A stretch of DNA of 64,000 nt from Planctomycetota bacterium (GTDB lineage: Bacteria > Planctomycetota > B15-G4 > SIAN01): NCBI GenBank assembly GCA_028289345.1, contig JANQQL010000018.1, forward strand, positions 86,030 through 150,029, read 5' to 3'. Of the stretch, positions 15,889-58,321 are shown piece by piece. The notes beneath the pieces are model-generated. The model saw nothing but the letters and a program-made list of their open reading frames with translations. It was not told the origin of the DNA and made no database searches. The stretch's first letter is position 1, and each line of letters begins with the position of its first letter. Made by a program: the position numbers and the translations under genes.

Positions 15889-15936
15889 CCCGAACGTTGT
15901 CTCGCAGGCCACGCTCCAGACTTGACCAGCGGGGAC

Positions 15937-19683: not shown

Positions 19684-19695
19684 GAAAGACCGCCC

Positions 19696-20124: not shown

Positions 20125-21041
20125 TCTTTCGCAAGCTCCGCGAAGGGCTGCGCAAGACCCGCGAGAAACTGACTTCGGGTCTCAGCAAGCTGTTCGGCGT
20201 CAACCGGGATTTGGACGACGCGTTCTTGATGGAGCTGGAAGAAGTTTTGTACGGCGCGGACCTGGGCGGCACCGGACTCCGTATCCTCAACGAACTGCGC
20301 GAAGAGTTCAAAGCTCGCGAGCTGAAAACCACCGACGACGTGCGCCAGCGTCTGCGCTCCAAGCTCTCGGACTGTTTGGGGGAGGAGTTCCCCGACCTGA
20401 CCAAGCGAACCGATGGACCGATGGTGGTGATGTTCGTCGGGGTGAATGGAACCGGAAAGACCACCTCCATCGCCAAGTTCACGCAGCACTTGAAAGACCA
20501 AGGACATCAGGTCGTGCTGGGAGCCTGCGACACTTACCGCGCGGCGGCGGTGGAGCAGCTTTCGATCTGGGCCGAACGCCTGTCCGTCGAGATCGCCAAG
20601 AAGGAAGAGGGCAGCGACCCTGCCTCGGTCGCCTTTGATGCGGCGGACCTGGCTCTGGAGAAAAACGCGGACTTCTTGCTGGTGGACACCGCCGGTCGCC
20701 TGCACACCCGGGAAGATTTGATGGCCGAGCTCGGCAAGATCCGCCGAGTCCTGGACAAACGCATCCCGGGCGCCCCCCACGAATCCTTCTTGGTCCTGGA
20801 TGCGACCACCGGCCAGAACGCCATTCGACAAGCCGAACAGTTCAAGGAGTACGTGCCCTTGAGCGGCGTCATGCTGGCCAAGCTGGACGGGACCGCCCGC
20901 GGTGGCGCCGTCATCTCGATCCGCGACCAGCTCGATCTGCCGGTGCGCTACGTCGGGCTTGGAGAACAAGCCGGAGACCTGGAACGCTTCGATCCCCAGC
21001 GCTTCTTGAACGCGATCTTGCAGGAAGATGCCGAGGAGTAA
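20121..21041 (+). CDS. ftsY: Signal recognition particle receptor FtsY
   Basis: GVNGTGKTT, DTAGR and TKLDGTARGG are SRP GTPase motifs. ATG 20121 overlaps the nusB stop (ATGA). 306 aa. Confidence 0.85.
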   Translation: MIFRKLREGLRKTREKLTSGLSKLFGVNRDLDDAFLMELEEVLYGADLGGTGLRILNELREEFKARELKTTDDVRQRLRSKLSDCLGEEFPDLTKRTDGPMVVMFVGVNGTGKTTSIAKFTQHLKDQGHQVVLGACDTYRAAAVEQLSIWAERLSVEIAKKEEGSDPASVAFDAADLALEKNADFLLVDTAGRLHTREDLMAELGKIRRVLDKRIPGAPHESFLVLDATTGQNAIRQAEQFKEYVPLSGVMLAKLDGTARGGAVISIRDQLDLPVRYVGLGEQAGDLERFDPQRFLNAILQEDAEE

Positions 21042-30881: not shown

Positions 30882-33380
30882 ATGATCCAGCGATGGTCGG
30901 CTGCGATGTACTTATTTGCCCATCTGGGTACGCAAACGCCAGAGGCTGGGCCACTGGTCACGATCAGCGTACCCGATGACCAATCTGATTGGAGTGAGCT
31001 GAACAGATACCTCAATGAAGAACTTCGCACACTGAATGCGTCGATCCGCATCAAGTTCACAAAGCGTGACATCGACTCGGCGCTCCATGAATTGGCGAAT
31101 CCGAGTGACAACAACGTCGGTGCCTTACTCCCACCGTTTCGCTATGTAGTCGCCGACCTCGTCGTGAATGACCTCGAGCTCGTCGCACGCATCCGACGTG
31201 CAGGACGTTTCGTCGTACCCCAGAGTGACTGGGACAACAACAAGCGTCCCGACTCTGACCCAGAGTATGCCGAGTACAACGCACCAGAGCCTCTTGATCA
31301 CTACCGGAGCCTGGTGGTGATGCACCGCAACTCAGGAGTGTGGCCACCTCCCCTCCCGCGTGACCTTTTCCGTGCACAGTCGATTCAAGAACGAAACCTC
31401 GACAAGGTAACCATCTCTTTTTCCGGTTACCGATCGACTTCTGAGTTCGTTTACCCCTTCGCTCATATCACGCGAAAGGGCTGGCGCGATCGCATCGTAG
31501 AAAGTCCGCGACGTACGGCCGGCCGACGTGAGGACGCCTGGAAGTTAAAGATGGTGTCCGTGGATAGCGCTCACTACGGAGACAAACGGGAAATCGCGGA
31601 ACGCAAGCAGCTCACGGAGAGTCTCGCATCGGAAACCGGCGACTTTCAACTTTTCTGTACAAGCGACCATAAGTTCTACGCCTCGTATCCGAACGAAAAA
31701 GCTCGCCATGCGAGATTTGAGGAGGTGTACCGCTCCCCTCCGATTCCCTTTGATGCACTGGTTGTTCGAAAATCCGCCCTCGGGCTCGTGGAACTTCAGA
31801 AGCTCAGGCGAGCTTTCCTCTCGACCCGCGACATGGCCCCGAAAGAGCGAGCAGAGTGTTTTCCATGGAGTCCTACTGAAGATGACAACCAGTCATTTCT
31901 GCGCTCTCCGGATGTCCACGATTTCGTCGAAGCCGATGATGCGGAGTACGACAAGATTCGCCAGGAAGCCGCGGTAGCATTTGGTGGAGCAATCGTGCGA
32001 GTTGCGGTCGCGAAGCAAGTGCACCGCAGCGAATCCCGAGACATGATGTTCTTTCGCCAGTGGATGAAGGACGTTCTGAAAGCACAACCGGATTCACCGG
32101 TGTTCCTTGACTTCGTGTACTACGACAGTTTCGACGAGATCGCGACAGATCTCAAAGACGGCAGAGTGCACCTCGGAGAGCTCAACGTAACTCGAGCCGC
32201 CACTCTCCTGGGACGTGAGGAGGGTGTACTGCTAGGACGCTCCGTCTTTGGCGGCGAGGACTTCTATCGATTCGTAATCGTGACGGCTGAGCCGAACAAG
32301 AAGACGGTCGATAGCATTCAAACGGCCGGCCCTTTCGCGATCACCTCGCGGGCATCTGGCTCCGGCTTCGTGTATCCCGTCGAATACCTTCAATCCAGAG
32401 GCCGAAGCCCGAAAGAACGAATTGAAGTCGGAAATGCTGACAACGTCCTCGACGCAGTTCTACGCTATGCCAACGAAAGCCAAGATCCAAAGTCTGCACT
32501 TTACGGCTTCATGGCCGACTTCGAATTCGAGAAAATCAGGAGACGCTGGCCCGAAAAAGCCATCGAAAAGATCGGAACCATTGAAGTTCATGAAGAGCAA
32601 GCGAGAATTCCCAACGCAATGCTCATTGCCTCAAAGGGCGCGTTCCCGATGGTCGGCACTTGGTTTCAGCGCTTGTCAACCGGGCACGAAAAGGATGAGA
32701 GCTCTGATGGGCGAAACGCAACTGCCGTTGAACAACCGCTGTCCACGAAGACCACTGACATCCTACGCGATGCAATCATCGCGAACCTGTCGTCGGAGGC
32801 ATTCGGAGGCTACCGACGGGCGACGCAAGATGACGTGGATGAGCTCAGCGAGCTCTACTGGAAAACTGCGAAGCGACCAGTCGCCATTATCGTCGGTGTC
32901 CTAGCCGTCGGAATCATCGCCTCCACATTGTGCGTCATCTGGGTCTATCGACGGGGCGTCTCATCTTCGAGCGAAGATCAGCGGGTGGTTTCAATTCAGA
33001 GCATTTGGGACGTATTGAAAGGCGGTGTCCCAGACGATCGAATGGCCCGAGATCTCATTTGCATCGGTTTGCAGATTTTTGGGCAACTGAAAGACGACGA
33101 CGGGAAGCTCAAGAAAGTCTTCGGTTCTCCTGCAGCGCTTCGGAAAGAGCTGGGCGACGCCCTGCTAGCCGTACTGGTCCGCCATCAAAGTGATCGCACC
33201 TTGTCTGACGAGACATACTACTACACTCATCTAGACAGACTGGACAGGGTGGTCAGGAAAGCCACGTCAGAGATCGATAACTACCTCAGTCGTGTTGATC
33301 GACCCGAGACTAGCGAATCGGCCGACTGGCTCTCAAAATGGGTGCGGACGCTGGATACCGTCAAGAAGCTAATTGACTGA
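30882..33380 (+). CDS. Large hypothetical protein: two tandem PhnD/SsuA-like (type-2 periplasmic-binding-fold) domains, single TM helix, unknown ~170-aa C-terminal domain
   Basis: AAGGAG 8 nt upstream of ATG 30882, and coupled to the upstream gene. Motifs TISFSGYRSTSEFVYPF and FAITSRASGSGFVYPVEYLQSRG resemble the PhnD substrate-binding fold. TM helix VAIIVGVLAVGIIASTLCVIWVY. No kinase, GGDEF or other known output domain. GC ~52-55%. Confidence 0.6.
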   Translation: MIQRWSAAMYLFAHLGTQTPEAGPLVTISVPDDQSDWSELNRYLNEELRTLNASIRIKFTKRDIDSALHELANPSDNNVGALLPPFRYVVADLVVNDLELVARIRRAGRFVVPQSDWDNNKRPDSDPEYAEYNAPEPLDHYRSLVVMHRNSGVWPPPLPRDLFRAQSIQERNLDKVTISFSGYRSTSEFVYPFAHITRKGWRDRIVESPRRTAGRREDAWKLKMVSVDSAHYGDKREIAERKQLTESLASETGDFQLFCTSDHKFYASYPNEKARHARFEEVYRSPPIPFDALVVRKSALGLVELQKLRRAFLSTRDMAPKERAECFPWSPTEDDNQSFLRSPDVHDFVEADDAEYDKIRQEAAVAFGGAIVRVAVAKQVHRSESRDMMFFRQWMKDVLKAQPDSPVFLDFVYYDSFDEIATDLKDGRVHLGELNVTRAATLLGREEGVLLGRSVFGGEDFYRFVIVTAEPNKKTVDSIQTAGPFAITSRASGSGFVYPVEYLQSRGRSPKERIEVGNADNVLDAVLRYANESQDPKSALYGFMADFEFEKIRRRWPEKAIEKIGTIEVHEEQARIPNAMLIASKGAFPMVGTWFQRLSTGHEKDESSDGRNATAVEQPLSTKTTDILRDAIIANLSSEAFGGYRRATQDDVDELSELYWKTAKRPVAIIVGVLAVGIIASTLCVIWVYRRGVSSSSEDQRVVSIQSIWDVLKGGVPDDRMARDLICIGLQIFGQLKDDDGKLKKVFGSPAALRKELGDALLAVLVRHQSDRTLSDETYYYTHLDRLDRVVRKATSEIDNYLSRVDRPETSESADWLSKWVRTLDTVKKLID

Positions 33381-35398: not shown

Positions 35399-37003
35399 TC
35401 AGAACAAAGCCGTCTCACTCTCTTCTGTGGTCGGCTCGTCCTCGAACTCCATCACCACACTGTCGGCGGTACTCGCCTCCTCTCCCGAAGGAGAGAACGT
35501 GTGGCCAGCATCGCCACGAACTCGTCGGACCAGCGAGTCCAGATCAAAGATCATCGTGGTCGATTCGAAAGAGCCATCGTCACCCGCAGTCACGTACTCT
35601 TTGATGTCGCACTTGAGTTCGCTGTTCGTGGGCGGCCGGAGCATCGATGGCACGTTCTGCTTCTGGTGAGCGTCGATGTGGATCAAACCGTCCACTCGGT
35701 CCACCATGAAGCCGAATACGTCTTTCCCCGAATCCACGATCAAGACCTGGGTCGACGCTTCATTCTCAAAGGGCTCGAGACCGTAGGTCCTCCTCAAATC
35801 GACGACCGAAACCAGTTTGCCGCGAAGGTTGAACACCCCACGAATGTGCTCCGGAGTTCCTGGCGTGTGGGTCAAGCTCTCGGGGAATTCGATGATTTCG
35901 CGGACGTCCAGTACCGGCAAGGCGGCCCGGTGCCCGAGTGAGAAGGTGATGTACGAGAAGCGTTCGCCGCTCCCGGTGGAACGAGTCTCTACTTCGACGA
36001 GGGACTCACCTTGATACAGGGCCTGATGGCTCTGCGTGACACCGACAATGCCCTCATCTTCGAGGATGCGTCCATGATCCAGGAGCAACACCTCCGAGCC
36101 ATCTGACGGAACAATGCACCCTCGAACCAGCGACTCCTTTTCCTGGTTGTAGTCCGGGATCGGCAACATCTGTTGATCGGTGTAGGCCAAGATACTGGTG
36201 ACCTCGTCGACCACAAGCCCAAATCGATCCGATCCGTGGTGCATGACGATGACTTTCTTCGAGTCAAGCCCCTCGTCTTCGTCGGAGCGATCGCCGTCAA
36301 GCATCTTCGAAAGTCGCAGCAGCGGCATCACGACGCCGCGCAAGGTCGTCATTCCCAAACACAGTTCGTCCGCAAGACTCGATTCTTGGTAGTCCGGCAT
36401 CGGAATGATCTCGCTGACCGCTGTCATTTCCAACGCAAGAAGATGATCCTCTACCTGAAAAGTGATGCATTGTTTGCGGATGCCTCCGGGAGAGCCCCCT
36501 TTGTCCGAAACTGGGTTCTTGGGATCCACAATGCGCGGGAGATTCTCGATGCGGGCCAATCGCCGGGCGTGGATGACGTCAACCAGCCGATTGCCGTCAT
36601 CCAACCGCAAAACTCCGGCAACCACCCGACGCCCGGGAGTCACAGGCTCCGAGTCGTCGGCCTCGTAGGAGAATGATTTCAGCGCGGAGTCGTCCACTCG
36701 CACGATTTCCTTCGTGCTGTCAAAGACCAGTCCGTAGCGGACCCCTTGGTCCTCCAGAATGGCAACTTTCCGATTCTCTTCCTGGTCCGCGTGGATCCCC
36801 AAGAGCTCTCCGACGTCGAGAATCGGGATGATCATTCCACGCAAGTTGAAGACACCGAGCATGAACGGCGGGGAAAGGGGAACAGGCACCACATCTTCTG
36901 GGGCGTTGACCACCTCCAAGATCTCGTTGACATCGATGCCGATCTCGGTCGTTCCCAGACCGAATGTTCCAAAGAGCCTGTTTCCGAGAGCCTTCTCTGT
37001 CAT
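35399..37003 (-). CDS. Chemotaxis protein with three tandem CheW-like domains
   Basis: Three repeats of the CheW pattern (...VVNAPEDVVPVPLSPPFMLGVFNLRGMIIPILD..., ...PMPDYQESSLADELCLGMTTLRGVVMPLL..., ...PESLTHTPGTPEHIRGVFNLRGKLVSVVDLR...). 534 aa. Confidence 0.8.
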   Translation of the reverse strand: MTEKALGNRLFGTFGLGTTEIGIDVNEILEVVNAPEDVVPVPLSPPFMLGVFNLRGMIIPILDVGELLGIHADQEENRKVAILEDQGVRYGLVFDSTKEIVRVDDSALKSFSYEADDSEPVTPGRRVVAGVLRLDDGNRLVDVIHARRLARIENLPRIVDPKNPVSDKGGSPGGIRKQCITFQVEDHLLALEMTAVSEIIPMPDYQESSLADELCLGMTTLRGVVMPLLRLSKMLDGDRSDEDEGLDSKKVIVMHHGSDRFGLVVDEVTSILAYTDQQMLPIPDYNQEKESLVRGCIVPSDGSEVLLLDHGRILEDEGIVGVTQSHQALYQGESLVEVETRSTGSGERFSYITFSLGHRAALPVLDVREIIEFPESLTHTPGTPEHIRGVFNLRGKLVSVVDLRRTYGLEPFENEASTQVLIVDSGKDVFGFMVDRVDGLIHIDAHQKQNVPSMLRPPTNSELKCDIKEYVTAGDDGSFESTTMIFDLDSLVRRVRGDAGHTFSPSGEEASTADSVVMEFEDEPTTEESETALF

Positions 37004-37006
37004 GAC

Positions 37007-37480
37007 CTACTCTCTGACGATCTTCTGGACTTCGAACTCACCGGTGTGACCGTGGATGAGCATCTGGCGCCCGAAGTGATCTCCGCATTCCTGGGAGATG
37101 ATCCTGATGCCCAGTTTCCGCAACGCGGCCCGGGCGGCACGGACATTGCCCTCGCCCACCTTGCCTCCGGGCGCCGCATCTCCGGGGCGCATCATCGACG
37201 CACCTCCGGCGACGACAGCTTTCACCGCGCGGAGTTCTGAGGGAGGGATTCCCATGCGACGGACCAACTCGGGGACGCCCCGGTCCACGTACTTGGCTTC
37301 GGCTTCCTCAGCCTTTTCACCGCTTGATTGGGGTAGCAGACAGTGCGCCAGTCCGTAGACCTCTCGGTCCTTCCAGAGGAGACCGATGCCCACGCAAGAG
37401 CCGAGGATGGTTTGCAGAGTCTCGCCCGCGGAGGCAACGCCGATGCGCCCCATGTGAACCCGCACGATCACCGAGTCCAT
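37007..37480 (-). CDS. cheD: Chemoreceptor glutamine deamidase CheD
   Basis: ILGSCVGIGL catalytic Cys region and overall CheD-like 157 aa. Confidence 0.8.
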   Translation of the reverse strand: MDSVIVRVHMGRIGVASAGETLQTILGSCVGIGLLWKDREVYGLAHCLLPQSSGEKAEEAEAKYVDRGVPELVRRMGIPPSELRAVKAVVAGGASMMRPGDAAPGGKVGEGNVRAARAALRKLGIRIISQECGDHFGRQMLIHGHTGEFEVQKIVRE

Positions 37481-38307
37481 CAGTCGGACCCTTTGCTGGT
37501 GTAAACGAGCGGTTGAATGAACTCCATTCGGGTATCCAAGCGAGCCAGAGATTCGGACTCGCCGATCACCAGGATGCCCCCCGGATTCAGGGATCGTCGC
37601 ACCGCTTCCACCACGGATTCTTGATCGGTCTGATCAAAGTAAATGAGAACGTTTCGAAGCAGCGCAATGTCGAACCGCTCTCGCGGAGTCCCCTGGCGAA
37701 GAAGATTGTGCTGGCGAAAGGTGATGTTCGCGCGAATCGTGGGAGCGACTTCCATCACTTCTTCATCCACCGGACGCAGGTAGTTGCGAAGGAATCCAGG
37801 ACTGGCTTTGCTCAACGCCTCGAGGGTTCGCCCCTGGTACCGGCCCGCCTCGGCCATCGCGAGGACCCCGGCAGAAATGTCCGTGGCGAGGACCGAAAAC
37901 TGAAACCCGCCGTGAGTTCGGCGGAACTCCTCGCCATACATGGCCAGGGTGTAGGCCTCTTCGCCCGTCGAGCATGCCGCGGACCAGATCCGCAATGGAC
38001 GGCTCGGCTCCCTCCTCCAAAACTCGGGAAGGAACTCACTCGCAAAGTAGCTCCAAACCCGCGGAGTCCGGTGAAAGTAGGTTTCATGGGTAGTGACCAA
38101 GTCGATGAACTGGTCCAACTCTCCTCGATCCGACTCGATCAGGTCCCAGTAGTCCGACCACTCAGAGATCTCTCTTGCCCGGAGTCGCCGCTCGAGACGT
38201 CCATGGATCAACGCCCGCTTCTTGGCGCTCATCCGGACCCCCGTGTGCTGGTACACCAACGCCAAGGCTTGCTTTAGGTCCGCATCGCACAACTCGAGAG
38301 TCGTCAT
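37480..38307 (-). CDS. cheR: Chemotaxis protein methyltransferase CheR
   Basis: IWSAACSTGEEAYTLA and VIGESE SAM-MTase motifs. Stop overlaps the cheD start (ATGA). Confidence 0.85.
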   Translation of the reverse strand: MTTLELCDADLKQALALVYQHTGVRMSAKKRALIHGRLERRLRAREISEWSDYWDLIESDRGELDQFIDLVTTHETYFHRTPRVWSYFASEFLPEFWRREPSRPLRIWSAACSTGEEAYTLAMYGEEFRRTHGGFQFSVLATDISAGVLAMAEAGRYQGRTLEALSKASPGFLRNYLRPVDEEVMEVAPTIRANITFRQHNLLRQGTPRERFDIALLRNVLIYFDQTDQESVVEAVRRSLNPGGILVIGESESLARLDTRMEFIQPLVYTSKGSD

Positions 38308-38316: not shown

Positions 38317-41013
38317 CTACTCGACCGTCGAACCGGCGAGGTTGGCTTTCAGTTCCTCGGCACCGTCCAGCAGGGCTTTCGTCGATCGAGCGATCGAGTC
38401 ACACGCGCCGGCGGATTTCTCCGTCTCTTCGGCGACATGTTGAATCGCCACGCTCACCTCGGTCGCCGCCGCCTTCTGCTCTTGCGTCGAAAGAGCGATT
38501 TCGGAGATCGCGTTGGTGGTGCGACTCACGCCATCGATGATCTTCTGGAACGCCGTTCCAGCCTCTCGGGAAACCTGGCTTCCGAGCGCCACTCGCTTGG
38601 TCGACTCCGCGATGAGCTTGGAGATCTCATTCGTTGCCTGGGCCGACCGCTCCGCCAGTTTCCGAACCTCGTCCGCGACCACAGAGAAACCGAGTCCATG
38701 CTCGCCGGCTCTCGCCGCCTCGATCGCAGCATTGAAGGCCAACAGATTCGTCTGGGAGGCGATCTCGTTGATCACTTTCACGATCTCTGCAATTTCCTCG
38801 GAGGACTTGTTGATCAACTCCATCGACTCGATCGACTGGTTGATCAACGACGTCCCCGACTCCCCTTCCGACTGGGTCGACTTGGCAAGGTTGTCCGCGT
38901 TCTGAGTATTCTGGGCGATCGCCTGGATCGCTTGGGTCAGCTCTTCGACCGACGCGCTCATTTCTTCCGTCGTGGCACCCAAGGCTTGAGCACCCTGGGC
39001 CACACTCGAGGACCGTGCCGCAATGTCCTTGGAGGAATTCGCGACATCGGTGGCGAGTCCGCTGACCGTGTCCGCCATTTCCTGCCGTTCTCGAACCTCG
39101 CGGGTGATGTCGGTGGCAAACTTGACCACTTTGCATGGGTTGCCATTGGCATCGAAGATCGGGTTGTAGTTGGCCTGAATCCAAACGGGGTCACCGTTCT
39201 TGGCCACTCTTCGGAAGCGGTCAGAGATGGATTCGCCGGAAGCCAATCGGTCCCAGAAGGCGCGGTACTCACTGGACCCCACAAAGTCCTTGTCGCAGAA
39301 CATCCGGTGGTGCTTGCCGACGATTTCGTCCAGAGAGTAACCCAGTGCGTTGAGGAAGTTTTCATTTGCAGTGACGACTTTGCCATCGAGTTCGAACTCG
39401 ATCACTGCTTGAGCGCGGCTGATTCCGTCCAGCTTCCCTTCGAAATCTGCGTTCTTCAGTTTGCGTTCCGTCACGTCGGACGCGAACTTCACCACCTTGA
39501 TCGGCCGCCCATTCATGTCGAAGATCGGATTGTACGTCGCCTGGATCCAGATCTCGCGTCCCCCCTTGCCGACACGCTTGTACTCCCCGGAATGGAACTC
39601 CCCTTTGGCGAGCGACTTCCAGAATTCCGCGTACTCCTCCGAGCGAGCTAGCTCGTCCTCGCAGAACATGCGGTGATGACGACCTCGGATTTCATCGAGG
39701 GTGTATCCCAGGGCCCGAAGGAAGTTGTCGTTCGCGTGAAGAATATTCCCTTCCAGGTCGAACTCGATCACGGCCTGGGCTCTTCCAATCGCACTCACCT
39801 TGCCCTCGAACTCAGCCCCTTGAAGTTTCGCCGCAGTGATGTCGGAAGCGAACTTCACCACCTTGTAAGGCCGACCGTTCATGTCTACGACAGGGTTGTA
39901 GGAGGCATGGATCCAGACGTCCCGGCCATCCTTGGCAACTCGGCGGTACTCACCGCTGTCGTATTCGCCGCGAGCCAGCTTGTCCCAGAATGCCGCATAG
40001 GCACTGGAGCTCGCGTACTCTTCGTCGCAGAAAATCCGGTGATGACGTCCCTGAACCTCCTCCAGCGAATAGCCCAGGGTTTGGAGGAAATTGTCGTTGG
40101 CGGAGAGAATGGTCCCGTCGAGATTGAACTCAATCACCGCCTGAGATCGGTTCAACGCAGACAGTTTGCTGTCGATCTCGGCGCTCGCCAGCTTTGCCTG
40201 GGTGATCTCCGACGCAAACTTGACGACCTTCACTGGGTTCCCACCGAGATCAAGAACGGGGTTGTAGGTCGCCTGGATCCAGACCTCGGTTCCGTCCTTG
40301 GCTCGGCGTGAGAACTCTCCGGAGGCGAACTCTCCCCGCGCCAGCGAGGCCCAGAACTCCTTGTACTCCGCGGACTTGGCATACTCGGGTTCGCAGAAGA
40401 TCCGATGGTGCTTCCCTCGGACCTCCTCCAGCCGGTAGCCAAGCGTGTCGAGAAAGTTCTCATTGGCGTCCAAGACGTGCCCGCTGAGATCAAACTCAAT
40501 CACCGCCTGGGATCGGCCGATGGCCTCGAGCTTTCCCTGACTCTCCGCTGCTTGGAGCTTCGCCTCGGTCACATCCGTCGCAAATTTGACGATCCGACAC
40601 GGCTTGCCGTGATCATCGAGGATCGGGTTGTAGGAAGCGTTGATCCAGATCTCTCGCCCCCCTTTCCCGAAGCGCATGTACTCCCCTTGGTCGAACTCCC
40701 CTCGGCCCAGCTTCTGCCAGAACTCACGGTACTCAGCGCTTGCCACGTAGCCCGGCTCACAGAAGATCCGGTGATGCTTGCCAACGATCTCTTCCAGTGA
40801 GTAGCCGACCGCGTTGAGGAAGTTGTTGTTCGCGTGGAGAATGGTCCCGTTGGGATCGAACTCGATGATTGCCTGGACTCGATTCAGAGCTTCCACGTAG
40901 GCCGAGTCGTCGGCAGCAGCGTTTTCCGGCCTCGCGCCATTCATTGCCTCGACGTAGCCGTTCGTGTCCAGTGATTTCGAAACTTCGTCCCGGTTGTTCT
41001 TCTTGGTTGCCAT
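38317..41013 (-). CDS. Cytoplasmic methyl-accepting chemotaxis protein with five tandem PAS domains
   Basis: Five ~123-aa repeats beginning (R)(S/A)QAVIEFD...HHR(I/M)FC..., followed by a C-terminal MCP signalling domain ([33 protein letters not shown]). No TM segments. Confidence 0.85.
39040..40884 (-). repeat. Five tandem ~369-bp coding repeats (PAS-domain units) inside the MCP gene
   Basis: Recurrent nucleotide blocks of the form cttcaccaccttg...ccgttcatgtc...gggttgta..gc.tggatccaga at a ~369-bp period, corresponding to the five PAS units. Confidence 0.6.
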
Positions 41014-41193
41014 TCTCTGTCACCCGTGATTGATGAAAAAGTCGTGCAAACCGAATCGGACGCTCCGCAGACAGGCTTGAAGGTTTCGAGGTGAAAACCT
41101 GTCCCGGCAATTTTGTCGTTGGGGGTCCTTCCTCAGGTGTTTCCCCCAACAGAAAGCTGCCCACGAAGCGCGCGCGAAGGTAACCTGCGTTCC

Positions 41194-41934
41194 ATGATCG
41201 TGACCCACAAGCTGACCCGCAGATTCGGAGCATCGGAGGCGGTGACCGATCTGAATCTTTCGGTTTCAGCGGGAGAGATCTACGGGTTCCTGGGTCCCAA
41301 CGGTGCTGGCAAGACGACCACCATCCGAATGCTGTGCGGGTTGCTACGGCCCAGCAGCGGCCGCATCGAGATCAACGGCGTTGACTTGGTGTCGCGACCC
41401 GCAGAAGTTCGCGCGATCACCGGCCTGGTGCCGGACACTCCGCCGATCTACGAATATCTCTCGGGCCGCGAGTACATCGGATTCGTGGCAAGCCTGTACG
41501 GGATCGATCCACGAAGAAGGGACGAGCTTGCGGAGCACTACCTCGAGGCATTCGACCTGGCCCACCGTGCCGACGAACTCTGCAAGAGCTACTCCCACGG
41601 AATGCGCAAAAAGATCCACATCGCCGCGGTACTCGTCACCTCTCCCCGGGTCCTGTTTCTCGACGAGCCGACCAATGGACTCGATCCCGCGAGCGCGCGC
41701 AAGCTGAAGGACGTCTTGGCAGTGGTTCGAGACGGCGGAACGGCGGTTTTTCTGAGCACCCATCTCCTCGACACCGCGGAAGAAGTCTGTGACCGGGTCG
41801 GGATCCTGACCGCGGGGAAGCTGCGCGCCGAAGGCACGATGTCCGAGTTGCGCGATGGCGGCGATGCGTCGCTCGAAGAGATCTTCCTCCAGTTGACGGA
41901 AGGTCCCGGCATTGATGCCAATGCTGCGAAGTGA
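41194..41934 (+). CDS. ABC transporter ATP-binding protein
   Basis: Walker A GPNGAGKTT. ABC signature YSHGMRKK. Walker B LFLDEPTNGLD. Start at MIVTHK, which is internal to the track ORF. Confidence 0.85.
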   Translation: MIVTHKLTRRFGASEAVTDLNLSVSAGEIYGFLGPNGAGKTTTIRMLCGLLRPSSGRIEINGVDLVSRPAEVRAITGLVPDTPPIYEYLSGREYIGFVASLYGIDPRRRDELAEHYLEAFDLAHRADELCKSYSHGMRKKIHIAAVLVTSPRVLFLDEPTNGLDPASARKLKDVLAVVRDGGTAVFLSTHLLDTAEEVCDRVGILTAGKLRAEGTMSELRDGGDASLEEIFLQLTEGPGIDANAAK

Positions 41935-43573
41935 CCTTCAGACCCTCAAGAATCTGGTCTCCACCCGCGAGGGTCGGAGCGTGCTCCTTGGGCAAGCGAT
42001 CGTCACCACCTGCGTCGTGGTCGGCTCCGTTGCACTGACCGGCGGTGTGCTTCTGGATGAGAAACTGCTGGACGCAGTACGCAATGATACGACCGGCGAG
42101 ATGGCTCACTTCTGCTACGCGACCGCATTGGTGCTTCCCATCTTGGTGGTTTTGGGAATGGGCTTCGCAGGATCCAACAACGAACTCTTTCAGGCCCCGC
42201 AACTCCCCACCCTCCTCAGCGCACCCATCAGCAGCTTCGCCATCGTGGGACGGTCTTTTCTGCGCATGGGAATGGGCTGCACGATGTTTTCTTTGGCGAT
42301 CACGATCCCTCCCATTCTGGGCTTGGCAGCACGCACAGAGCTTCCGGCAACCCCTGTGCTCATGGCCCCGGTCGCGGTGGCATTGCTCGTCGCACCAACT
42401 CTCGCGGCTCAATGCCTACTGAAAGTGGTGTTCGTTCGCTGGTGCTCCGGACTTCGAGTGCGACAGATCTTCCTACTCCTCAACGTCTTGTTTCTCACCG
42501 GACTGACGCTGTTGGCCGGGTTCGGTCTCGTCAAGGGATCGGATTTGGCGGCGCGGCTGACCGAGGTCATGCAGAACGCGCGCAGCCTCCCATGGTACCT
42601 GGACGCTCCTGCGGGCTTGTTGTCATGGAGCGCGGGCTTGGCAGCCACCGAAGACCTGGCCAGAAGGAGCGTTGGGCTGGCAACGATTGCGGTGGGGCTC
42701 TTGGGATTCACCGCCTTTCTCTACCGAGCCGCCGTTGAGGCCTTCTGGGTGGCGGGGACCGCAACCCCTCCGGCCAAAACTCTCTCGGGCCCACGCGCCT
42801 GGCCCGGCCGCCCGCTTCCTTCTCTCTTGAAGAAGACGTTCCTTGAATCACTCCGTGTCCGGTCGAACGTGATTGGGTACGGGTTGATCGCGTTCCTCAT
42901 GGTTCTGACCCTGTCGGTCAGCGGGGAGGTTCAGCCTCACGAACTCGACCGGACCCCGCGAGTTCTGAGTGAGCTATTCCACGTCTGGCTCCCATGGCAT
43001 GGACTGATCCTGCTCATCTCCTGCATCTCTTTCCTCGCCGTCATTGGCGAGGAACAGAAGCAGATCGCTCTCCTCGCCATGGCGCCCGTATCGCGCCGGC
43101 TCCTGCTCTGGAGCAAGATCCTCTCCGTCGCCGCCCCTTTCTTGGCCTGCGCCGCCATTGTCCTGGTGGCTTCCTCCCCACTGCAGGCAACCTCCTGGAG
43201 CGCACTTGGGCTCTTTGCACTCGTTTCCCTCCCCATCGTGCTCTTCACCCTCGGCCTGCTCGCGATGGTGGGAACCTGGCCGGCGTTCACCCAGATCCAT
43301 CGCGACGTTCCCCTGGCCAGCAACCTGCGCTCGGTCATTCCTGTCCTGGTGATTGGGGGAACGATGTCCGGAGCAATGCTCGGCCTGATCAAGATCAAGT
43401 ATGCGCTGAAGGGCTGCTACAACGGACACGGGTGGTTGTCAGGGATGGACCCAACCCAGGCCGGGATAACCATCCTCGCACTCCTGTGGGTGATCGGTGG
43501 CCTGTCATTTGCCCTTTTCTGCCGACTGGGACGACGCAACTTGGACCAACTTCTGGGCCCTCAATCGAGTTAG
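41912..43573 (+). CDS. Putative ABC-2-type permease-like polytopic membrane protein
   Basis: Overlaps the ATPase stop by 23 nt. More than 12 hydrophobic segments. No recognisable family motif. Confidence 0.55.
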   Translation: MMPMLRSDLQTLKNLVSTREGRSVLLGQAIVTTCVVVGSVALTGGVLLDEKLLDAVRNDTTGEMAHFCYATALVLPILVVLGMGFAGSNNELFQAPQLPTLLSAPISSFAIVGRSFLRMGMGCTMFSLAITIPPILGLAARTELPATPVLMAPVAVALLVAPTLAAQCLLKVVFVRWCSGLRVRQIFLLLNVLFLTGLTLLAGFGLVKGSDLAARLTEVMQNARSLPWYLDAPAGLLSWSAGLAATEDLARRSVGLATIAVGLLGFTAFLYRAAVEAFWVAGTATPPAKTLSGPRAWPGRPLPSLLKKTFLESLRVRSNVIGYGLIAFLMVLTLSVSGEVQPHELDRTPRVLSELFHVWLPWHGLILLISCISFLAVIGEEQKQIALLAMAPVSRRLLLWSKILSVAAPFLACAAIVLVASSPLQATSWSALGLFALVSLPIVLFTLGLLAMVGTWPAFTQIHRDVPLASNLRSVIPVLVIGGTMSGAMLGLIKIKYALKGCYNGHGWLSGMDPTQAGITILALLWVIGGLSFALFCRLGRRNLDQLLGPQSS

Positions 43574-51811: not shown

Positions 51812-54754
51812 CTAAGGAGTTCCCCCGGCTCCTCGGCCTCGTGCCTTTTCTGGGAACACCTCGCGAATGGCTTCGGCGAGGTCTCGGATGCGGAATGGTT
51901 TCTTCAGCATCCCCTCGAACCCTTGCGACCGATACTTGGCCAGAATCCCTTCGTCGGAGTAGCCGCTGGTGAGGATGGCATGAATGGACGGTTGCGCCGA
52001 TCGAAGCTGATCGAGGGCAGCCTTTCCGCCAGTGCCCCCGGGGATCGTGGCATCGATGACCGCGAGATCGAACGGACCGCGTTCTCCCCACTCTCGAATG
52101 GCCGCTTGGCCGTCGGGGACCGCGGTCACGTCATAACCAAGCTTGATGAGCATGAGGCGAAACGCCGCGCGAACCATGGGCTCATCGTCGATGACCAGAA
52201 CGTGGCCGCGTCCCTGAGGAAGGCGCTCGGGCTCCGTTGGCATCTCCCATTCCGAACCGGGATGGGCCGGGATGAAGATTTCGAACGTGGCCCCGCGCCC
52301 AGGACCCGGCTCTGAGGACAACCGAAGCACTCCTTCGTGGCGTTTCAAGACCGCATACGAAGTGGCCAGTCCCAATCCACGATTCTCGTTCTTGGTCGAA
52401 AAATACGGGGTGAAGATTTTCTTGCGCAACGCCGAAGCGACGCCAGGACCAGAGTCGTTGATGACAACGCGAACGTAATTGCCGGCCTGCAGATCGGGCC
52501 ATTCTCCTTCCTTCACCACGACGTTCTTGGCGGAAACGTGGAGGGTGCCCTGCCCCCCCATCGCTTCTTGGGCATTCAAAACCAAGTTGGAAAGGACCTG
52601 GGCGAGCTGTCCTTCGTCGTACTTCGCCGGCCACAGTTCCTTTTGCAAGTCGAAGCACACGTTCACCGCGGATCCCGATCGCGAGAATGAAACCCAACGT
52701 TCAATCTGCGAGTCCAGGCGGTGAATCTTGAGGACCGGGGTCCCTCCACGGGCGAATCCGAGCAGTTGATTGGCCAGCTGTCCCGCCCGAAGCGCCGCAT
52801 CCTCCGCCTCTTCGAGGAGCTCGTCCGTGTCCTCTTCCTTACCGATGCTTCGCGCCGCGCTCACGTGGCCCAGGATTGCGGTGAGTGCATTGTTGAAGTC
52901 ATGGGCGATCCCTGCCGCCAGCAGGCTCAACGAGTCCAGAGTTTGGGCTCGCGACTGTTCTTCCTCGAGTCGACGCTGGGTGGTGACATCGCGCAATGTG
53001 ACCAGATTCACCGGACCTCGCTCGATCACCACCTCGCTCGAGGACACCTCGATCTGCGACTCGTCCCCAAGGTCGTTCCGGGTTTGCCAAGAAGTGGAGG
53101 ACGAGTTCAGCGGCAGATCCGGAGCCAGCTCCCGTAGGTTTTTTCCTTCAAGAGCCGTGGAGCCGTCGCCGAGCCATTGGACGGCGAGACGGTTGGCCTG
53201 CAGGATGGAGCCAGTCGATGGGTCGACGAGAACGCGACCACTCGACTCGTCTTCGAACAAGCACCGGTAGAGACGTTCCGATTTCCGGGATCGCTGCAGC
53301 AATCGAGCGCGGGTTCGCGAGAACCAGACCAGACTCACGCAGAACAACGCGAGAATGGAACAGCCGGCCACCAGAACGAAGACCTTTGCGCGCTGTTCTC
53401 CCCTCTCGACAAGCTGTTGGGAACGCAGGCGGTCGAGTTCGCTCTCCTTTTCCGCAAGTTCAAACTGGCGAGTGAGTTCGTCGATGGCTTGATCGGTGCG
53501 TTCCCGCTCCTTCGCGCTCTGCGCCGCTGCGAGTTCGAAGCGGGTCGCCAACTCGGCGTTCTTGGCGGTCAGATCGGCGGAGGTGAGCTCTCTTTCCACC
53601 GCGACGAAGTGGCGGAAGGCCCGCGCTGCTTTCGCTTCCTCTCCCAACTCCAGGTAAGTTTCGACCAAGACCTGGTAGATGTCGCGCTCCAGGATTCCGC
53701 GGACTTCCCCGAGGGAATCCCGGGCTTCTTCCAGGAGCACCAGGGCTTCTTCCGGCTCCCCCCCATCGAGGAGGATCTTTCCCAAATCGAAGAGCGATCG
53801 GGAAAGAGATCCGATCAGGCCGACTTCGCGGCGCAACTCCAAGGCGAGGCGGAGTTCCTGAACCGCATCCTCATAGAGGTCCATGGCGGAAAGGGTGAGT
53901 CCCAACGCCGTGCGGTCCGAGACCTCCTCGACCCGGTTGCCTTGTTCGAGGTGATAGTCCAAAACCTGGGTGTGAAGCTCCAACGCCTCATCGAGATCGC
54001 CTTGCTCTCGCAACGCGCTCGCCAGGTGACGCAGGACCGACATGGCCGTGTCCTCGTCACCGATCTCCAGGAACAGTTCATGGGAGGCCCGATAGGCATC
54101 GCAAGCATCGCCCACACTGCCAAGGTTCTTGTAAACGATGCCCAAGTTGTTCCAGGCTCGGGCTTGGAGAGGCAAGTTGTCCGCTTCCTCTCCGAGCCGC
54201 AGAGACTCCTCATGCAGCGTCGTGGACTTGGCGTAGTCCCCTACGCGGAAGGCAATGCCCCCGCGGATCGAGATGGCGTTGGCGAGGCGAATGACGTCTT
54301 TCTGCGGGTTGTAACGGTCGACCGCGTTCTCCACCGCGCGATCCGCCAGGTCGAACTCACCGAGTTCGAAGGCAGTGAGACCTTCGGCCAGGTAGGCATC
54401 TCCCACCACGGCCTCGACGTCGGTCTGCTCCGCACACTCTCGCCACTGCCGCGCCGTGCTTCGAGCCTCGTCGAATCGGGCCAGACCTTGAAGCAATCGC
54501 CAATGCCATTCCCGAACCCCGCACTCCGAGGCCGGGTCGGGTTGAGATTGCAGTTGCCGCAACAACCCTTCGCAGACCGCAACCCGCGCTTCCAGGGAAC
54601 TCCCGGCGCTGGTCAGATGCGCTCCCAGTCGAGAGAGACGCGCTTCCGGATCGAGGGAAGACACCTCTTCGAGAATGGAGGAATTCGGGGCGGGCGCGAA
54701 CCAAGCAAGCGCCCAAACGATGACGGTGGAGCCGGCCCTGAGCATGACGGCCAT
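51812..54754 (-). CDS. Hybrid sensor histidine kinase/response regulator with N-terminal TPR sensor region
   Basis: TPR repeats, coiled coil, TM (VFVLVAGCSILALFCVSLVWF), PAS, HisKA H-box (IAHDFNN), HATPase_c (GLGLATSY) and a C-terminal receiver (VLVIDDE...D...). Confidence 0.85.
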   Translation of the reverse strand: MAVMLRAGSTVIVWALAWFAPAPNSSILEEVSSLDPEARLSRLGAHLTSAGSSLEARVAVCEGLLRQLQSQPDPASECGVREWHWRLLQGLARFDEARSTARQWRECAEQTDVEAVVGDAYLAEGLTAFELGEFDLADRAVENAVDRYNPQKDVIRLANAISIRGGIAFRVGDYAKSTTLHEESLRLGEEADNLPLQARAWNNLGIVYKNLGSVGDACDAYRASHELFLEIGDEDTAMSVLRHLASALREQGDLDEALELHTQVLDYHLEQGNRVEEVSDRTALGLTLSAMDLYEDAVQELRLALELRREVGLIGSLSRSLFDLGKILLDGGEPEEALVLLEEARDSLGEVRGILERDIYQVLVETYLELGEEAKAARAFRHFVAVERELTSADLTAKNAELATRFELAAAQSAKERERTDQAIDELTRQFELAEKESELDRLRSQQLVERGEQRAKVFVLVAGCSILALFCVSLVWFSRTRARLLQRSRKSERLYRCLFEDESSGRVLVDPSTGSILQANRLAVQWLGDGSTALEGKNLRELAPDLPLNSSSTSWQTRNDLGDESQIEVSSSEVVIERGPVNLVTLRDVTTQRRLEEEQSRAQTLDSLSLLAAGIAHDFNNALTAILGHVSAARSIGKEEDTDELLEEAEDAALRAGQLANQLLGFARGGTPVLKIHRLDSQIERWVSFSRSGSAVNVCFDLQKELWPAKYDEGQLAQVLSNLVLNAQEAMGGQGTLHVSAKNVVVKEGEWPDLQAGNYVRVVINDSGPGVASALRKKIFTPYFSTKNENRGLGLATSYAVLKRHEGVLRLSSEPGPGRGATFEIFIPAHPGSEWEMPTEPERLPQGRGHVLVIDDEPMVRAAFRLMLIKLGYDVTAVPDGQAAIREWGERGPFDLAVIDATIPGGTGGKAALDQLRSAQPSIHAILTSGYSDEGILAKYRSQGFEGMLKKPFRIRDLAEAIREVFPEKARGRGAGGTP

Positions 54755-55345
54755 GATACCGGGAGCCTCGAGGGGCTCTCGTTCAGCCCCTCCGGGATTT
54801 CCCTGCCCCCGGGAGAGCGCCATCGACTCCGCGGGGATTCCGCGTCATTCCAATCGGCGACCTCGCCAGGGTGATTGCGAGCCTCTTCCAGGCCGCCTCC
54901 ATTCGCTCGCCATTGATCACTCCATCGGCGCTTTCTCGCGCAAGCAATCCGGACTCGCGAAAGGCCGGACGGACCCGCCGTTCATATTGCTCCAGGATGG
55001 AGTTCAGCGACGCGCCCGATCGTGCTGATCCCGCCGGATCCGCCATCGCAACCGTTCAATCGTTGCCGACACAACACCAAGACTCCTTGGGTCGGTGCCC
55101 AGGCGAACAACAGGATTGGTTCAACCGACGAGACCAGGGAAACCGGGTGACAGTCCATGCGCAGGGCTCAGACCACCTGACCCAATGACGTGGCAAAAAC
55201 GAACGGAGCCGCCCCAGCCACCGGCCGTTCGGCCGATCGGATCGAGTGCTTGATTCCGGGGACGGCGCTTTCCCTTTTCTCCCACAATCTGATAGTCTTC
55301 GGTTATGAGACGCAGTCTCAATTTCATTCTAACCGAGGGGGTTCG

Positions 55346-58321
55346 ATGCCGTCTCTCCTGTCCCGTTCCTTCCTGGCGATCCCGGCGACCGCATTGCTGA
55401 TGGCATGCGGCGGAGGCGGTGGCGGCTCGTCTGAGCCGAGCGGGACGCCCGCGGAACTGCTTCGTGTGGTGTTTCCGGATCCGCAATCGGTCAACGAGGA
55501 AGCCCCGGACCACTCCCCACAAAACTGTCCGCTGAATCAAGAAGTGCGGTTCGAATTCGCCACCTCCCCTTCTCCATCGTCGATCGGTCCCGAAACCTTG
55601 CCAATCCTCGATGCCACGGGAAGACCGGTCGTCGGGACCTACCGGGTGGAACCCCGCGCGGCTGTGTTCTCCCCCCACCTGGTCGGATCCATGGAAGAGG
55701 TGGACACCTCCCCCGGCTTTCGGCCCGACATGGTTCACTCGATCCGACTCTCTTCCAACGCTGCCATTGCCGCCAAGAGTCCCGCCTTGCAATCCACGAG
55801 CGGTGCCCTGACTCTGTTCATAAGGACAACATCGGAGCCCTCTCGATTCTTCTTGGGGAGCCAGCCAAGAACTCCGCGGTTGGAGTTTTCCGATCCCTCC
55901 GACGGCGCCGTGGGGATCTCCCCCTTTCTATACACGGACCCTGACGGACACTTTCCGGGTCCGAAACCATTCCGGCTGCGCTTCGACGCCCCCCTGCATC
56001 CGGAAACATTGGACGGTTTTCAGTTGTTCGATCTGGACGATCGAACCGGAGCCGACCCCACCGGCCGACGCTTGGCGACCCTGGCACGAATCGTGGAGCA
56101 ATCCTCTGACCACTGTTTGGTCGAGGTGCGTCCCAGCGGAATCCTTCCTTTCGGCCACCTTCTCTCTCTCGAGTTTCCGCAACCGCTGCAAGGTTTGGCA
56201 CAACTCAAGACTGAAAGCGAGCGCACGCAAATCGCAGCAACGTTCACGGTGGCTTTTGCGACTTCCGAAACGATCCGTGACGAGCTGCGGGAGAACTTCC
56301 GTGGCAGCTCCGAACCCATGGAATCCGATGCCTCGGAGACCGAGTTCCGACAAGCCACATGGAACGCCCAGGAAGGTGGCGGCTTGGAGCCGACGATCTT
56401 GCTGACCGGGTCCGGCGAACTCGGCCGCTTCTCTCCCCTTCCCCCAGCCCCTCCCGAGGACCCGGACCTCCCGACCACACCTCGAGAGGTTCTCCTCGAT
56501 ACCGACTCTCAGTGGTTCCCATTGACCGACGGGTCGACGCCCGACCTGGCCGAGCGCGTCCACGTCGCGGGAGGCAAGTTCGCCTTCACGGACATCGAGA
56601 TCCCGGAAGGGGTGCGCGTACGGGCGCGCGGAACCAATCCGCTGTTTCTCACCGCCTCGGGCAGCGTGCGCATCGCCGGCGAGATTCACCTTTCGGGTGC
56701 AAACGGACGGGATGAATTCAACTTCGACTCTGCTGTCTCGTCGAACCCGGGCGGGCTGGGCGGACCGGGCGGCGGACGCGGCGGGGAAGGACAGCCTCTC
56801 CTCTACGCCCAAGGCAGCTCCGATGTTTCCGCCCTACTTTCCCCGCCCCGAGGGGGGCGCGGTTGGGGTGCCAGCAACCAATCACGAATCGGTGGACAGG
56901 GCGGACAGTCGGGAATCCTCGATCATCCGAACAGCCGCGGAAAGCTCGGCACCGATCACGAAATCAACTGTCATGAGTCCAACAGCGATCACAACAACGG
57001 TTACCGGCCCCCTGGCGGTGGCGGCGGCTCCTTCGCCGTTGCCGGAAAATCGCCTCAGAGGGATGGCATTGGCAACGTCATCACCGATGGCTTCGGCAAC
57101 TATCTCGTTCGCGAAGAAAGTGAGTTCGGCGACGAAGCCAATGTCCTGACACGAGGGCAGGGAGCTTCCCCTCTGTTCGACGACGAGGACCCGGACAACG
57201 ATTTCTTTGGAGCCCAAGGAGAGTTTCGGCAGGTCTTCGGCGGACAAGGAGGCGGGGCCGGGGGATCCGCCCTTGACGGTTACTACTGCGGACAATGGTG
57301 CAAGCTCGACTCCCTTGCACGCAACGACCGGCTGTGCGAACCAGAAGGGTTGTTCGAAAACAACCCCGACGCGGCGGATAGCTCTGTGGACGCTCGCGGC
57401 GGCGGCGGCGGTGGTGGTGGCGGAAGCCTTATCGTCGAAGCCATGGGCCCCGTTGTGTTGGAGACCACCGCGCGACTGGCAGCTCGCGGAGGAAACGGGG
57501 GAGGGGGCGAGCAACTCGGATGCAGCAACTGGGCCGGCTCCGGCGGCGGCGGTTCGGGCGGAGCCATTGTCCTGCGTTCCGCCACCTCGGTGGACGTCGA
57601 AGGGGAGGCCACGATCGATGTCAGCCGGGGAGAGGGCGCCCCTGCGGAAAAAGAAAACGACTGGGTTGGATTTCAATGTCAGCAACTCCGCGACAACGTC
57701 TCGGGAGCTGGGGGTCATGGCGGACGAGGCTTGATTCAGTTGCAAGTGCCACCCGGCAAAACGGCCCAAGTGGGAGCGTCCACCAACCTCACCAACAATG
57801 CGTGGGTCGATCCTTCCAACGAACGGAACCCGGTGGACTTTCACTCCACCAGCGGTGCAGTCTCCCATTGGTTTGATATGGGAAGAACGGTGAATCGCCC
57901 TCCTCACCAAGCAAACCCTCGGTTTCGATTTCGAGGTCTTGATCGAAACGGATTCGTTCGGACGGATGACTCCGGATTCGTTCCCAACCCAAGAGATGCC
58001 GACGCCCGTGTGAATTTCCTCGGGGTGAGAGACCCTCTCATTCCCACCCGCTTTCTCCCAGGTCTCGAACCCAAGGGAAACTTCGTGCCGCGGAACGCAT
58101 CGATTCGAATTGAGTTCCAAGGGGGCCACCCGCTTCGCGAAGGCGGCCGAGAAGTGGACCCCGAGTCAATGACGGATTGGCATGCCGACGCATCGATCGC
58201 GGACGGCCACCAATTCATTCGTTTCCGAGTGACCTTCGACGTCGGCAACTCGGACGAACCGCTCTCCCGGTTGACACCGATCCCCACGCTTCAGTGGATC
58301 AGGATCCGGACTGAGTTTTAG
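55346..58321 (+). CDS. Large lipoprotein with glycine-rich repeat blocks (hypothetical)
   Basis: Lipobox LLMACGGGGGGS. Recurrent GGxGGGG(S/A)..IVL/LIV blocks. About 990 aa and secreted. No assignable family. Confidence 0.55.
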   Translation: MPSLLSRSFLAIPATALLMACGGGGGGSSEPSGTPAELLRVVFPDPQSVNEEAPDHSPQNCPLNQEVRFEFATSPSPSSIGPETLPILDATGRPVVGTYRVEPRAAVFSPHLVGSMEEVDTSPGFRPDMVHSIRLSSNAAIAAKSPALQSTSGALTLFIRTTSEPSRFFLGSQPRTPRLEFSDPSDGAVGISPFLYTDPDGHFPGPKPFRLRFDAPLHPETLDGFQLFDLDDRTGADPTGRRLATLARIVEQSSDHCLVEVRPSGILPFGHLLSLEFPQPLQGLAQLKTESERTQIAATFTVAFATSETIRDELRENFRGSSEPMESDASETEFRQATWNAQEGGGLEPTILLTGSGELGRFSPLPPAPPEDPDLPTTPREVLLDTDSQWFPLTDGSTPDLAERVHVAGGKFAFTDIEIPEGVRVRARGTNPLFLTASGSVRIAGEIHLSGANGRDEFNFDSAVSSNPGGLGGPGGGRGGEGQPLLYAQGSSDVSALLSPPRGGRGWGASNQSRIGGQGGQSGILDHPNSRGKLGTDHEINCHESNSDHNNGYRPPGGGGGSFAVAGKSPQRDGIGNVITDGFGNYLVREESEFGDEANVLTRGQGASPLFDDEDPDNDFFGAQGEFRQVFGGQGGGAGGSALDGYYCGQWCKLDSLARNDRLCEPEGLFENNPDAADSSVDARGGGGGGGGGSLIVEAMGPVVLETTARLAARGGNGGGGEQLGCSNWAGSGGGGSGGAIVLRSATSVDVEGEATIDVSRGEGAPAEKENDWVGFQCQQLRDNVSGAGGHGGRGLIQLQVPPGKTAQVGASTNLTNNAWVDPSNERNPVDFHSTSGAVSHWFDMGRTVNRPPHQANPRFRFRGLDRNGFVRTDDSGFVPNPRDADARVNFLGVRDPLIPTRFLPGLEPKGNFVPRNASIRIEFQGGHPLREGGREVDPESMTDWHADASIADGHQFIRFRVTFDVGNSDEPLSRLTPIPTLQWIRIRTEF

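Follow-up and report, generated by a model that had tools for sequence, protein, structure and literature searches.

Soluble chemoreceptors with PAS domains are well known. AerC from Azospirillum brasilense is a soluble two-PAS receptor with a role in redox/energy taxis. It binds flavin adenine dinucleotide (FAD) weakly via a conserved Trp, and the PAS_FAD2 class, most members of which are cytoplasmic, was founded on it (2026 review, PMC13401364). BdlA (PA1423) and McpS (PA1930) from Pseudomonas aeruginosa consist of two PAS domains and a short methyl-accepting chemotaxis protein (MCP) domain; they fall into one cluster, and FAD binding is predicted for both (PMC8694187). BdlA works by proteolytic activation and phosphodiesterases. 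A 64-kb stretch of planctomycete DNA (the window, i.e. the whole stretch analysed) encodes a protein of 898 amino acid residues (aa), hereafter the receptor, in which five tandem PAS domains precede an MCP signalling domain. The five modules derive from an ancient duplication and are not a recent or unstable DNA repeat. The whole protein is likely a class IV chemoreceptor, whose AerC/BdlA-type PAS domains would sense the redox or energy state through a flavin and signal in line to a hairpin of 36H length.

Like AerC, the receptor is a soluble MCP with N-terminal tandem PAS domains and no HAMP domain, and, as judged by the signature, its PAS units share with AerC the F-alpha Trp and the E-alpha His and have no G-beta Asn. 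AerC differs in having two PAS domains instead of five and in being from an alphaproteobacterium. With BdlA and McpS the receptor shares the PAS subtype, the 122-aa register (the PAS domains of McpS begin at residues 17 and 139; PMC8694187), the solubility and the placement of the PAS domains immediately before the MCP domain. In contrast to their two PAS domains and unusually short MCP domain, the receptor has five PAS domains, a 254-residue hairpin of 36H length and an operon with CheR, CheD and CheW genes; on the basis of the PAS number and the hairpin, an assignment as BdlA/McpS ortholog was rejected. The PAS domains of Escherichia coli Aer (PDB: 8dik) and of MmoS (PAS-A, PDB: 3ewk) bind FAD and have the Trp and the His in common with the receptor units, although Aer is membrane-anchored and has one PAS and a HAMP domain. 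Of the signalling domains of E. coli Tsr and Tar (36H class), that of Tsr superposes on the receptor hairpin, but the receptor is devoid of their transmembrane (TM) segments, periplasmic domain, HAMP domain and C-terminal pentapeptide. Lastly, poly-HAMP arrays, e.g. in Aer2, are presented in PMC13446029 as a repeated small signalling module stacked in line on the helical backbone of a soluble receptor. The module is HAMP there and PAS here, and the comparison is an analogy only.

Architecture of the receptor

The start codon of the receptor gene is fixed, because the frame is closed by a stop three codons before the ATG, which excludes a longer N-terminus. Pfam assigned five PAS_3 domains (7e-92) and one MCPsignal domain (PF00015; 3.2e-47, 161 bits versus a cutoff of 34.6), and NCBIfam assigned five sensory_box domains along with Tar/Tsr/Aer2-like signalling domains. 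The highest 19-residue Kyte-Doolittle mean was 0.87, far below the values of TM segments. With neither a TM segment nor a signal peptide, the receptor has class IV (cytoplasmic) topology. A HAMP domain was found neither in the domain scans nor in the model of units 4 and 5 with the hairpin. The C-terminus reads ...LAGSTVE and carries no NWETF-type pentapeptide. The original prediction, made from the DNA, of a soluble chemoreceptor with a tandem array of five PAS domains and no TM segments is correct. A protein identical to the receptor (P0002) is known only from a single NCBI contig and a single Logan assembly, that of SRR20820731.

Repeat units and age of the duplication

The motif HHR[IM]FC occurs in each of the five units, at residues 80, 202, 324, 446 and 568. 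Its spacing is exactly 122 aa, i.e. 366 bp, so that the regular repeat was recognized correctly in the prediction and its period, given there as about 369 bp, was slightly overestimated. The Tyr predicted to trail the motif in every unit is confined to units 1–3, with Leu in unit 4 and Phe in unit 5. Pairs of units are 49–65% identical in protein (mean 58%; 50–60% predicted) and 58–67% identical in nucleotides (mean 62%), and the suggested comparison of the receptor gene with itself recovered in-register families at 366-nt spacing with 60–75% identity. From the protein identity and this recognizable DNA similarity a recent tandem duplication had been concluded.

At the codon level this conclusion fails. 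Identity at third codon positions between units is 31–45%, where 32% is expected from composition, and residues identical between two units share the same codon in 43–54% of cases (mean 0.485), compared with 0.486 predicted from the codon usage of the gene. According to the Nei-Gojobori method, the proportion of synonymous differences between units (pS) is 0.65–0.82, the synonymous distance (dS) ranges from 1.5 to undefined, i.e. saturated, and the nonsynonymous distance (dN) is 0.28–0.45. The DNA similarity among the units is fully explained by protein constraint, and each of the five units is kept under purifying selection. At the synonymous sites, which are those that matter, the repeats are much more divergent in DNA than they appear by eye. 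The 19 signature positions that were checked are kept in all five units, except for conservative variation at position 19 (D/N/E), position 113 (D/E) and position 114 (I/V).

Tandem Repeats Finder (TRF) detected no 366-bp array between positions 37500 and 42000, only trivial 8–10-nt repeats. The longest exact in-register match between any two units is 18 nt, and the best 60-nt window between units, located in the conserved core, is 83% identical. The homolog P0099 served as a positive control: two of its units are 100% identical in protein, and its locus (L083, positions 4115–5277) contains a TRF array of period 366 with 3.2 copies, 98% matches and a score of 2228. This is what a recent duplication looks like in this PAS family, with the proviso that an assembly artefact is possible in a metagenome assembly.

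The closest ortholog of the receptor, P0026, is 71% identical and also contains five units. Units 1 to 5 of the receptor scored best against the P0026 unit at the same position (0.68, 0.66, 0.66, 0.70 and 0.66, compared with 0.49–0.65 among siblings in the receptor), unit 3 being tied between units 3 and 1 of P0026. This positional match implies that the five-unit array is older than the split from the P0026 lineage. For each of the five units, the nearest relative among the family units lies in another protein, and the highest sibling identity is 0.65, where the family median is 0.72. Perfect periodicity in a protein, even with a DNA identity of about 62%, is thus no proof of a recent or unstable repeat, and the question is quickly decided by a test at the codon level.

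PAS subtype and predicted cofactor

FAD-binding PAS clusters have been defined by three residues, i.e. an F-alpha Trp as the primary determinant, an E-alpha His and a G-beta Asn, the positions of which correspond to Arg, Cys and Asn of light-oxygen-voltage (LOV) domains. The AerC cluster (cluster 9), which is enriched in chemoreceptors, has kept the Trp and the His but not the Asn (Xing, Gumerov & Zhulin 2023, PMC10468136). W65 is present in all five receptor units and in 97% of 697 family units, and aligns with W70 of Aer, the Trp of MmoS and the phosphate-binding Arg of LOV domains. H47, with the same frequencies, aligns with H53 of Aer and the adduct Cys of LOV domains. The Asn position is occupied by Arg80 in all five units and by Arg in 96% of the family units. 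Hence the residues suggested for inspection as FAD or heme contacts turned out to be the Trp/His signature of AerC-type (PAS_FAD2/cluster 9) FAD-binding domains, for which no Asn is required, in each of the five units.

The nearest solved chains by sequence are the FAD-binding domains of MmoS (1.3e-16) and Aer (1.3e-13), with 30% identity; LOV domains, DosP, TodS, HIF-2alpha and NifL followed in the PDB sequence search. An AlphaFold2 (AF2) model of unit 4, for which 70 further units of the family were used, had a predicted local distance difference test score (pLDDT) of 95.3 and showed the canonical A-beta to I-beta PAS topology with N- and C-terminal helices. In a Foldseek search this model retrieved 630 PAS matches from the PDB at E <= 0.001, the best of which were LOV domains, MmoS, NifL and Aer.

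A further link leads to BdlA. The residues of BdlA studied by mutagenesis are D14, N23, G31, E36, W60, R75, W84, I109 and W182 (PMC4047105). At a constant offset of +5 they are the conserved unit positions D19, N28, G36, E41, W65, R80, W89 and I114, and W182 equals W60 + 122. The constant offset and the spacing of the two Trp residues imply that BdlA shares the PAS subtype and the period with the receptor, an indirect but specific link.

Taken from the signature and from the flavin-binding solved relatives, a flavin is the probable cofactor of each PAS unit, and the input with the best support is an intracellular redox or energy signal. The cytoplasmic redox or metabolite signal presumed in the original prediction agrees with this.

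Two other roles of conserved residues were considered and rejected. A LOV-type photosensor was dismissed as His47 occupies the position of the adduct Cys (GXNCRFLQ); the conserved Cys51 is found four residues further on, opposite LOV Leu/Gln positions in the alignment to 2z6c. The Cys of the HHRxFC motif is kept in all five receptor units. As a family-defining redox thiol it was dismissed, with Cys in 51%, Val in 32% and Ala in 11% of the family units.

Signalling hairpin and proposed working

The conserved tip motif of the hairpin lies around Glu771 and places the tip Glu at this position. The arm between the end of PAS5 and this residue measures 126 residues and the arm from it to the C-terminus 127 residues, equal to 18 heptads per arm. 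A hairpin with 18 heptads per arm is said to form the 36H class in the scheme proposed by Alexander and Zhulin in 2007. Foldseek superposed the receptor hairpin on the cytoplasmic domain of Tsr (Tsr fusion, PDB: 3zx6) with a root-mean-square deviation of 2.0 over 257 columns and 36% identity, and the NCBIfam models of Tar and Tsr align over about 250 residues. By its arm lengths and this full-length superposition, the hairpin is of 36H length. Two matches to the methylation/deamidation consensus are located in the hairpin, ATTEEMSA at residue 680 and STQEQKAA at residue 842.

Units 4 and 5 together with the hairpin were modelled with AF2 as a monomer (pLDDT 84, predicted template modelling score (pTM) 0.36). 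In this model the I-beta strand of PAS4 leads via a continuous helix (construct residues 115–134) to the A-beta strand of PAS5, and the I-beta strand of PAS5 leads into a single helix of 136 residues (construct residues 237–372) up to the tip, from which the return helix runs from 375 to 497. The near-invariant period of 122 residues means that the helix between PAS units has a fixed length, and such a length would fit an in-phase, in-line transmission along a dimeric helical spine.

On these grounds the following working is proposed. The sensor would be a rod of five AerC/BdlA-type PAS modules in a fixed 122-residue register, consecutive modules being joined by a helix of roughly 20 residues. 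Each module, with its F-alpha Trp and E-alpha His, would hold a flavin and report the intracellular redox or energy state. Since the I-beta strand of PAS5 continues into the N-arm helix of the hairpin with no HAMP domain in between, a conformational change in the PAS array could be passed in line to the hairpin tip. The tip, together with a triple-CheW protein, would control a CheA encoded elsewhere, and CheR and CheD from the same operon may provide adaptation at the two consensus sites.

Operon organization

Downstream of the receptor gene, a CheR methyltransferase, CheD and a triple-CheW coupling protein are encoded in close succession (Table 1). The order MCP-CheR-CheD-multi-CheW is repeated around P0026 (L002) and P0099 (L083), and is hence found in three contigs together with the receptor's own. 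The multi-CheW genes in the matching position of L002 and L083 encode proteins of 506 and 480 aa. The triple-CheW protein is possibly an array scaffold for soluble receptors. In one of the three contigs a flagellin-domain gene adjoins these genes. The operon adds a chemosensory module composed of a multi-PAS MCP, CheR, CheD and a triple CheW to a poorly sampled lineage of the Planctomycetota.

Alternative explanations

The age of the array, the cofactor and the output of the receptor can each be read differently. A recent tandem duplication at the DNA level, in which units could still be added or lost through the repeats, would agree with the perfect 366-bp register and the nucleotide identity of the units, and very recent unit duplications do occur in the family, as the P0099 array and the 159 of 697 family units with their closest relative in the same protein illustrate. 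The synonymous saturation, the codon sharing at the expected level, the want of a TRF array, the short exact matches, the positional orthology with P0026 and the low sibling identities all contradict it for the receptor gene, and we regard it as highly improbable. In a second alternative, heme would be the cofactor of all or some PAS units, with direct sensing of O2 or NO in place of redox sensing via a flavin; this is a better but still unlikely candidate. It could account for the near-invariant His-His pair (93% and 97%) in the E-alpha region, the region that provides the heme ligand in Aer2-type PAS domains (PMC10468136; cluster 119, marked by a heme-ligating His on E-eta), and the heme PAS domains of DosP and FixL are among the fold matches. 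No Aer2 PAS chain, however, was among the PDB sequence matches to the units at E <= 0.01, where FAD binders ranked highest; the NCBIfam model of Vibrio Aer2 matched the receptor over the signalling domain only (residues 635–888). H47 aligns with the flavin-facing Cys of LOV domains and with the conserved His of the FAD clusters, 97% of the family units have the Trp that is the primary FAD determinant, and FAD is the predicted ligand of BdlA and McpS (PMC8694187). Some points nonetheless weigh against flavin and against the proposed working in general. The flavin assignment builds on two signature residues and homology, and the likeness of the units to AerC was judged by the signature as opposed to a direct sequence comparison. 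The FAD-contact residues R57, H58, D60 and N85 of Aer are not conserved, the units having Cys, Glu, a variable residue and Arg instead. BdlA itself reportedly binds heme (in its PASa domain) rather than FAD, a finding that Petrova and Sauer are said to have made in 2012. The models are monomers with a pTM of 0.36 for the two-PAS construct, so that the geometry of rod and dimer is conjectural.

CheA, CheY and CheB were not found in the 64-kb window, the case of CheA following from the lack of a second CheW-like domain there. This speaks against a motility chemoreceptor, and the receptor could instead be a BdlA-like scaffold or regulator, e.g. of cyclic di-GMP enzymes, or belong to a chemosensory pathway with a non-motility output. 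BdlA, with the same PAS type, is cleaved between its PAS domains and then acts via DipA and RbdA, both of them phosphodiesterases, and the same PAS arrays occur on GGDEF-EAL proteins (P0057 and P0073). Unlike the shortened domain of BdlA and McpS, however, the receptor hairpin has the full 36H length and a canonical tip; the gene is tightly linked with the CheR, CheD and triple-CheW genes in an order conserved in three contigs, one of which has the flagellin-domain gene next door. A role outside motility is in our judgement quite improbable, and a class IV chemoreceptor with flavin-based PAS sensing is preferred.

Copy number in the family

A search with the full-length protein gave at least 8000 matches, and PAS units were counted in the best 120 of them with a hidden Markov model built from the five receptor units. 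These 120 proteins contain 4–9 units each, and the spacing from one unit to the next is exactly 122 aa in 521 of 577 cases. Organisms named among the homologs belong to the Actinomycetota, Pseudomonadota, Myxococcota, Acidobacteriota and Planctomycetota. In a scan of genome contigs the best relatives were 35–63% identical and came from many phyla, so that copy numbers, 1 to 10 units in representative genomes, are compared across distant relatives. A profile search of 1.84 billion cluster representatives yielded 4,981 proteins at E <= 1e-30, many with 10–15 units. The metagenomic protein P0344 (4,799 aa) has 29 matched PAS stretches and extends the family range to 1–29; P0300, P0254 and P0241 have 13–15 matched units of the same subtype. 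The receptor is thus a member of a very large known kind, with thousands of similar multi-PAS proteins in public data, and the single gene matters little.

Near-identical unit pairs in the family are almost always adjacent. Among 21 homologs with a 36H-length tail like that of the receptor, 4, 5, 6, 7 or 8 units precede the tail (identities of about 0.1 in the ungapped comparison of tails arose from an offset and were disregarded as an artefact). In Pandoraea, the receptors of two species (L004 and L005) have three units and those of about 25 others have two (L013–L033 among the loci compared). Across species, identity is 88–90% for the flanking units and 95% for the tails, and the additional unit in the middle shares 70% identity with either neighbour; this is a gain or loss of a whole unit. 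Such changes by whole units characterize the family, with the receptor gene at its stable end. The expansion and contraction by repeats that had been held plausible for this gene is not favoured in it today, given the longest exact match of 18 nt, but does occur elsewhere in the family. A different event is seen in the genome of Tagaea, where two adjacent two-PAS MCP paralogs with tails of 249–250 aa (L073, 5959–7470 and 7556–9178) represent a duplication of the gene, not of the unit.

In P0057 and P0073 the 122-aa PAS units (nine in P0057) are attached to GGDEF and EAL domains instead of an MCP domain, which makes the array a portable sensor module. The fixed-register array is a property of the family and not special to the window. 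We found no literature description of poly-PAS or multiple-PAS arrays in chemoreceptors, of their fixed register or of copy-number evolution by whole units, which is a weak negative. One may speculate, though we hold it doubtful, that arrays of AerC/BdlA-type PAS domains in a near-invariant 122-residue register constitute a distinct 'poly-PAS rod' architecture analogous to poly-HAMP, in which fixed linkers keep the helical phase, redox sensing is tuned in gain, range or cooperativity by how many flavin sites there are, and the copy number shifts in steps of 366 bp. If so, the receptor gene would be a stable five-module example in the Planctomycetota. The family-wide register and the gain and loss of whole units point to a mechanical constraint on in-line signalling from PAS to PAS, which is little studied and for which AerC, BdlA and McpS are tractable models.

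Genomic surroundings

The features of the receptor locus are compiled in Table 1.

Table 1 Receptor gene, its domains and candidate sites, and the downstream operon genes, with positions in the window
Feature	Position	Strand	Remarks
Soluble five-PAS methyl-accepting chemotaxis protein, complete coding sequence	38317..41013	minus	898 aa + stop; open reading frame (ORF) list, Pfam, identical public protein P0002
PAS unit 1	40546..40911	minus	aa 35–156; H80/H81, C85, W99, R114
PAS unit 2	40180..40545	minus	aa 157–278; H202/H203, C207, W221, R236
PAS unit 3	39814..40179	minus	aa 279–400; H324/H325, C329, W343, R358
PAS unit 4	39448..39813	minus	aa 401–522; H446/H447, C451, W465, R480; modelled, pLDDT 95.3
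PAS unit 5	39082..39447	minus	aa 523–644; H568/H569, C573, W587, R602; I-beta runs into signalling helix
Signalling (kinase-control) hairpin	38320..39081	minus	aa 645–898; Pfam, NCBIfam, Foldseek match to Tsr 3zx6
Candidate methylation/deamidation-consensus site ATTEEMSA	38953..38976	minus	aa 680–687, N-arm; pattern match, putative function
Candidate methylation/deamidation-consensus site STQEQKAA	38467..38490	minus	aa 842–849, C-arm; pattern match, putative function
CheR methyltransferase	37480..38307	minus	9 nt downstream of MCP stop; Pfam CheR_N + CheR
CheD	37007..37480	minus	overlaps CheR stop by 1 nt; Pfam CheD
Triple-CheW coupling protein	35399..37003	minus	534 aa; Pfam CheW, 3 stretches, 5.4e-76; 3 nt after CheD; ends operon

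Transcription of the receptor gene diverges from that of the genes for an ABC-transporter ATPase and for a hydrophobic protein of 553 aa without Pfam match (41113–43573, plus strand), and the same neighbours are present in the Logan contig L001. The sole receiver domain found in the window is part of a hybrid histidine kinase of 1003 aa with TPR, HisKA and HATPase_c domains (51812–54823, minus strand). PurD of the window is closest to proteins of Planctomycetes metagenome-assembled genomes, with 62–64% identity for the best named matches, and the window also holds sulfatase and FG-GAP genes as well as several large proteins without Pfam matches. All this is consistent with a poorly sampled lineage of the Planctomycetota.

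Five long ORFs (463–1043 aa) had no Pfam match at 1e-5 (8594–10399, 10699–13710, 15922–17313, 41912–43573 and 55190–58321); some of them overlap long ORFs on the opposite strand in GC-rich DNA and are putative genes. An SRP54-type GTPase of 520 aa with an N-terminal extension of roughly 310 residues (19479–21041, plus strand) could be FtsY or the flagellar regulator FlhF. Between positions 30001 and 33000 the GC content is 0.55, compared with about 0.61 elsewhere. The dip lies over the gene of an 832-aa protein with a phosphonate-binding domain (30882–33380, plus strand) and may mark acquired DNA.

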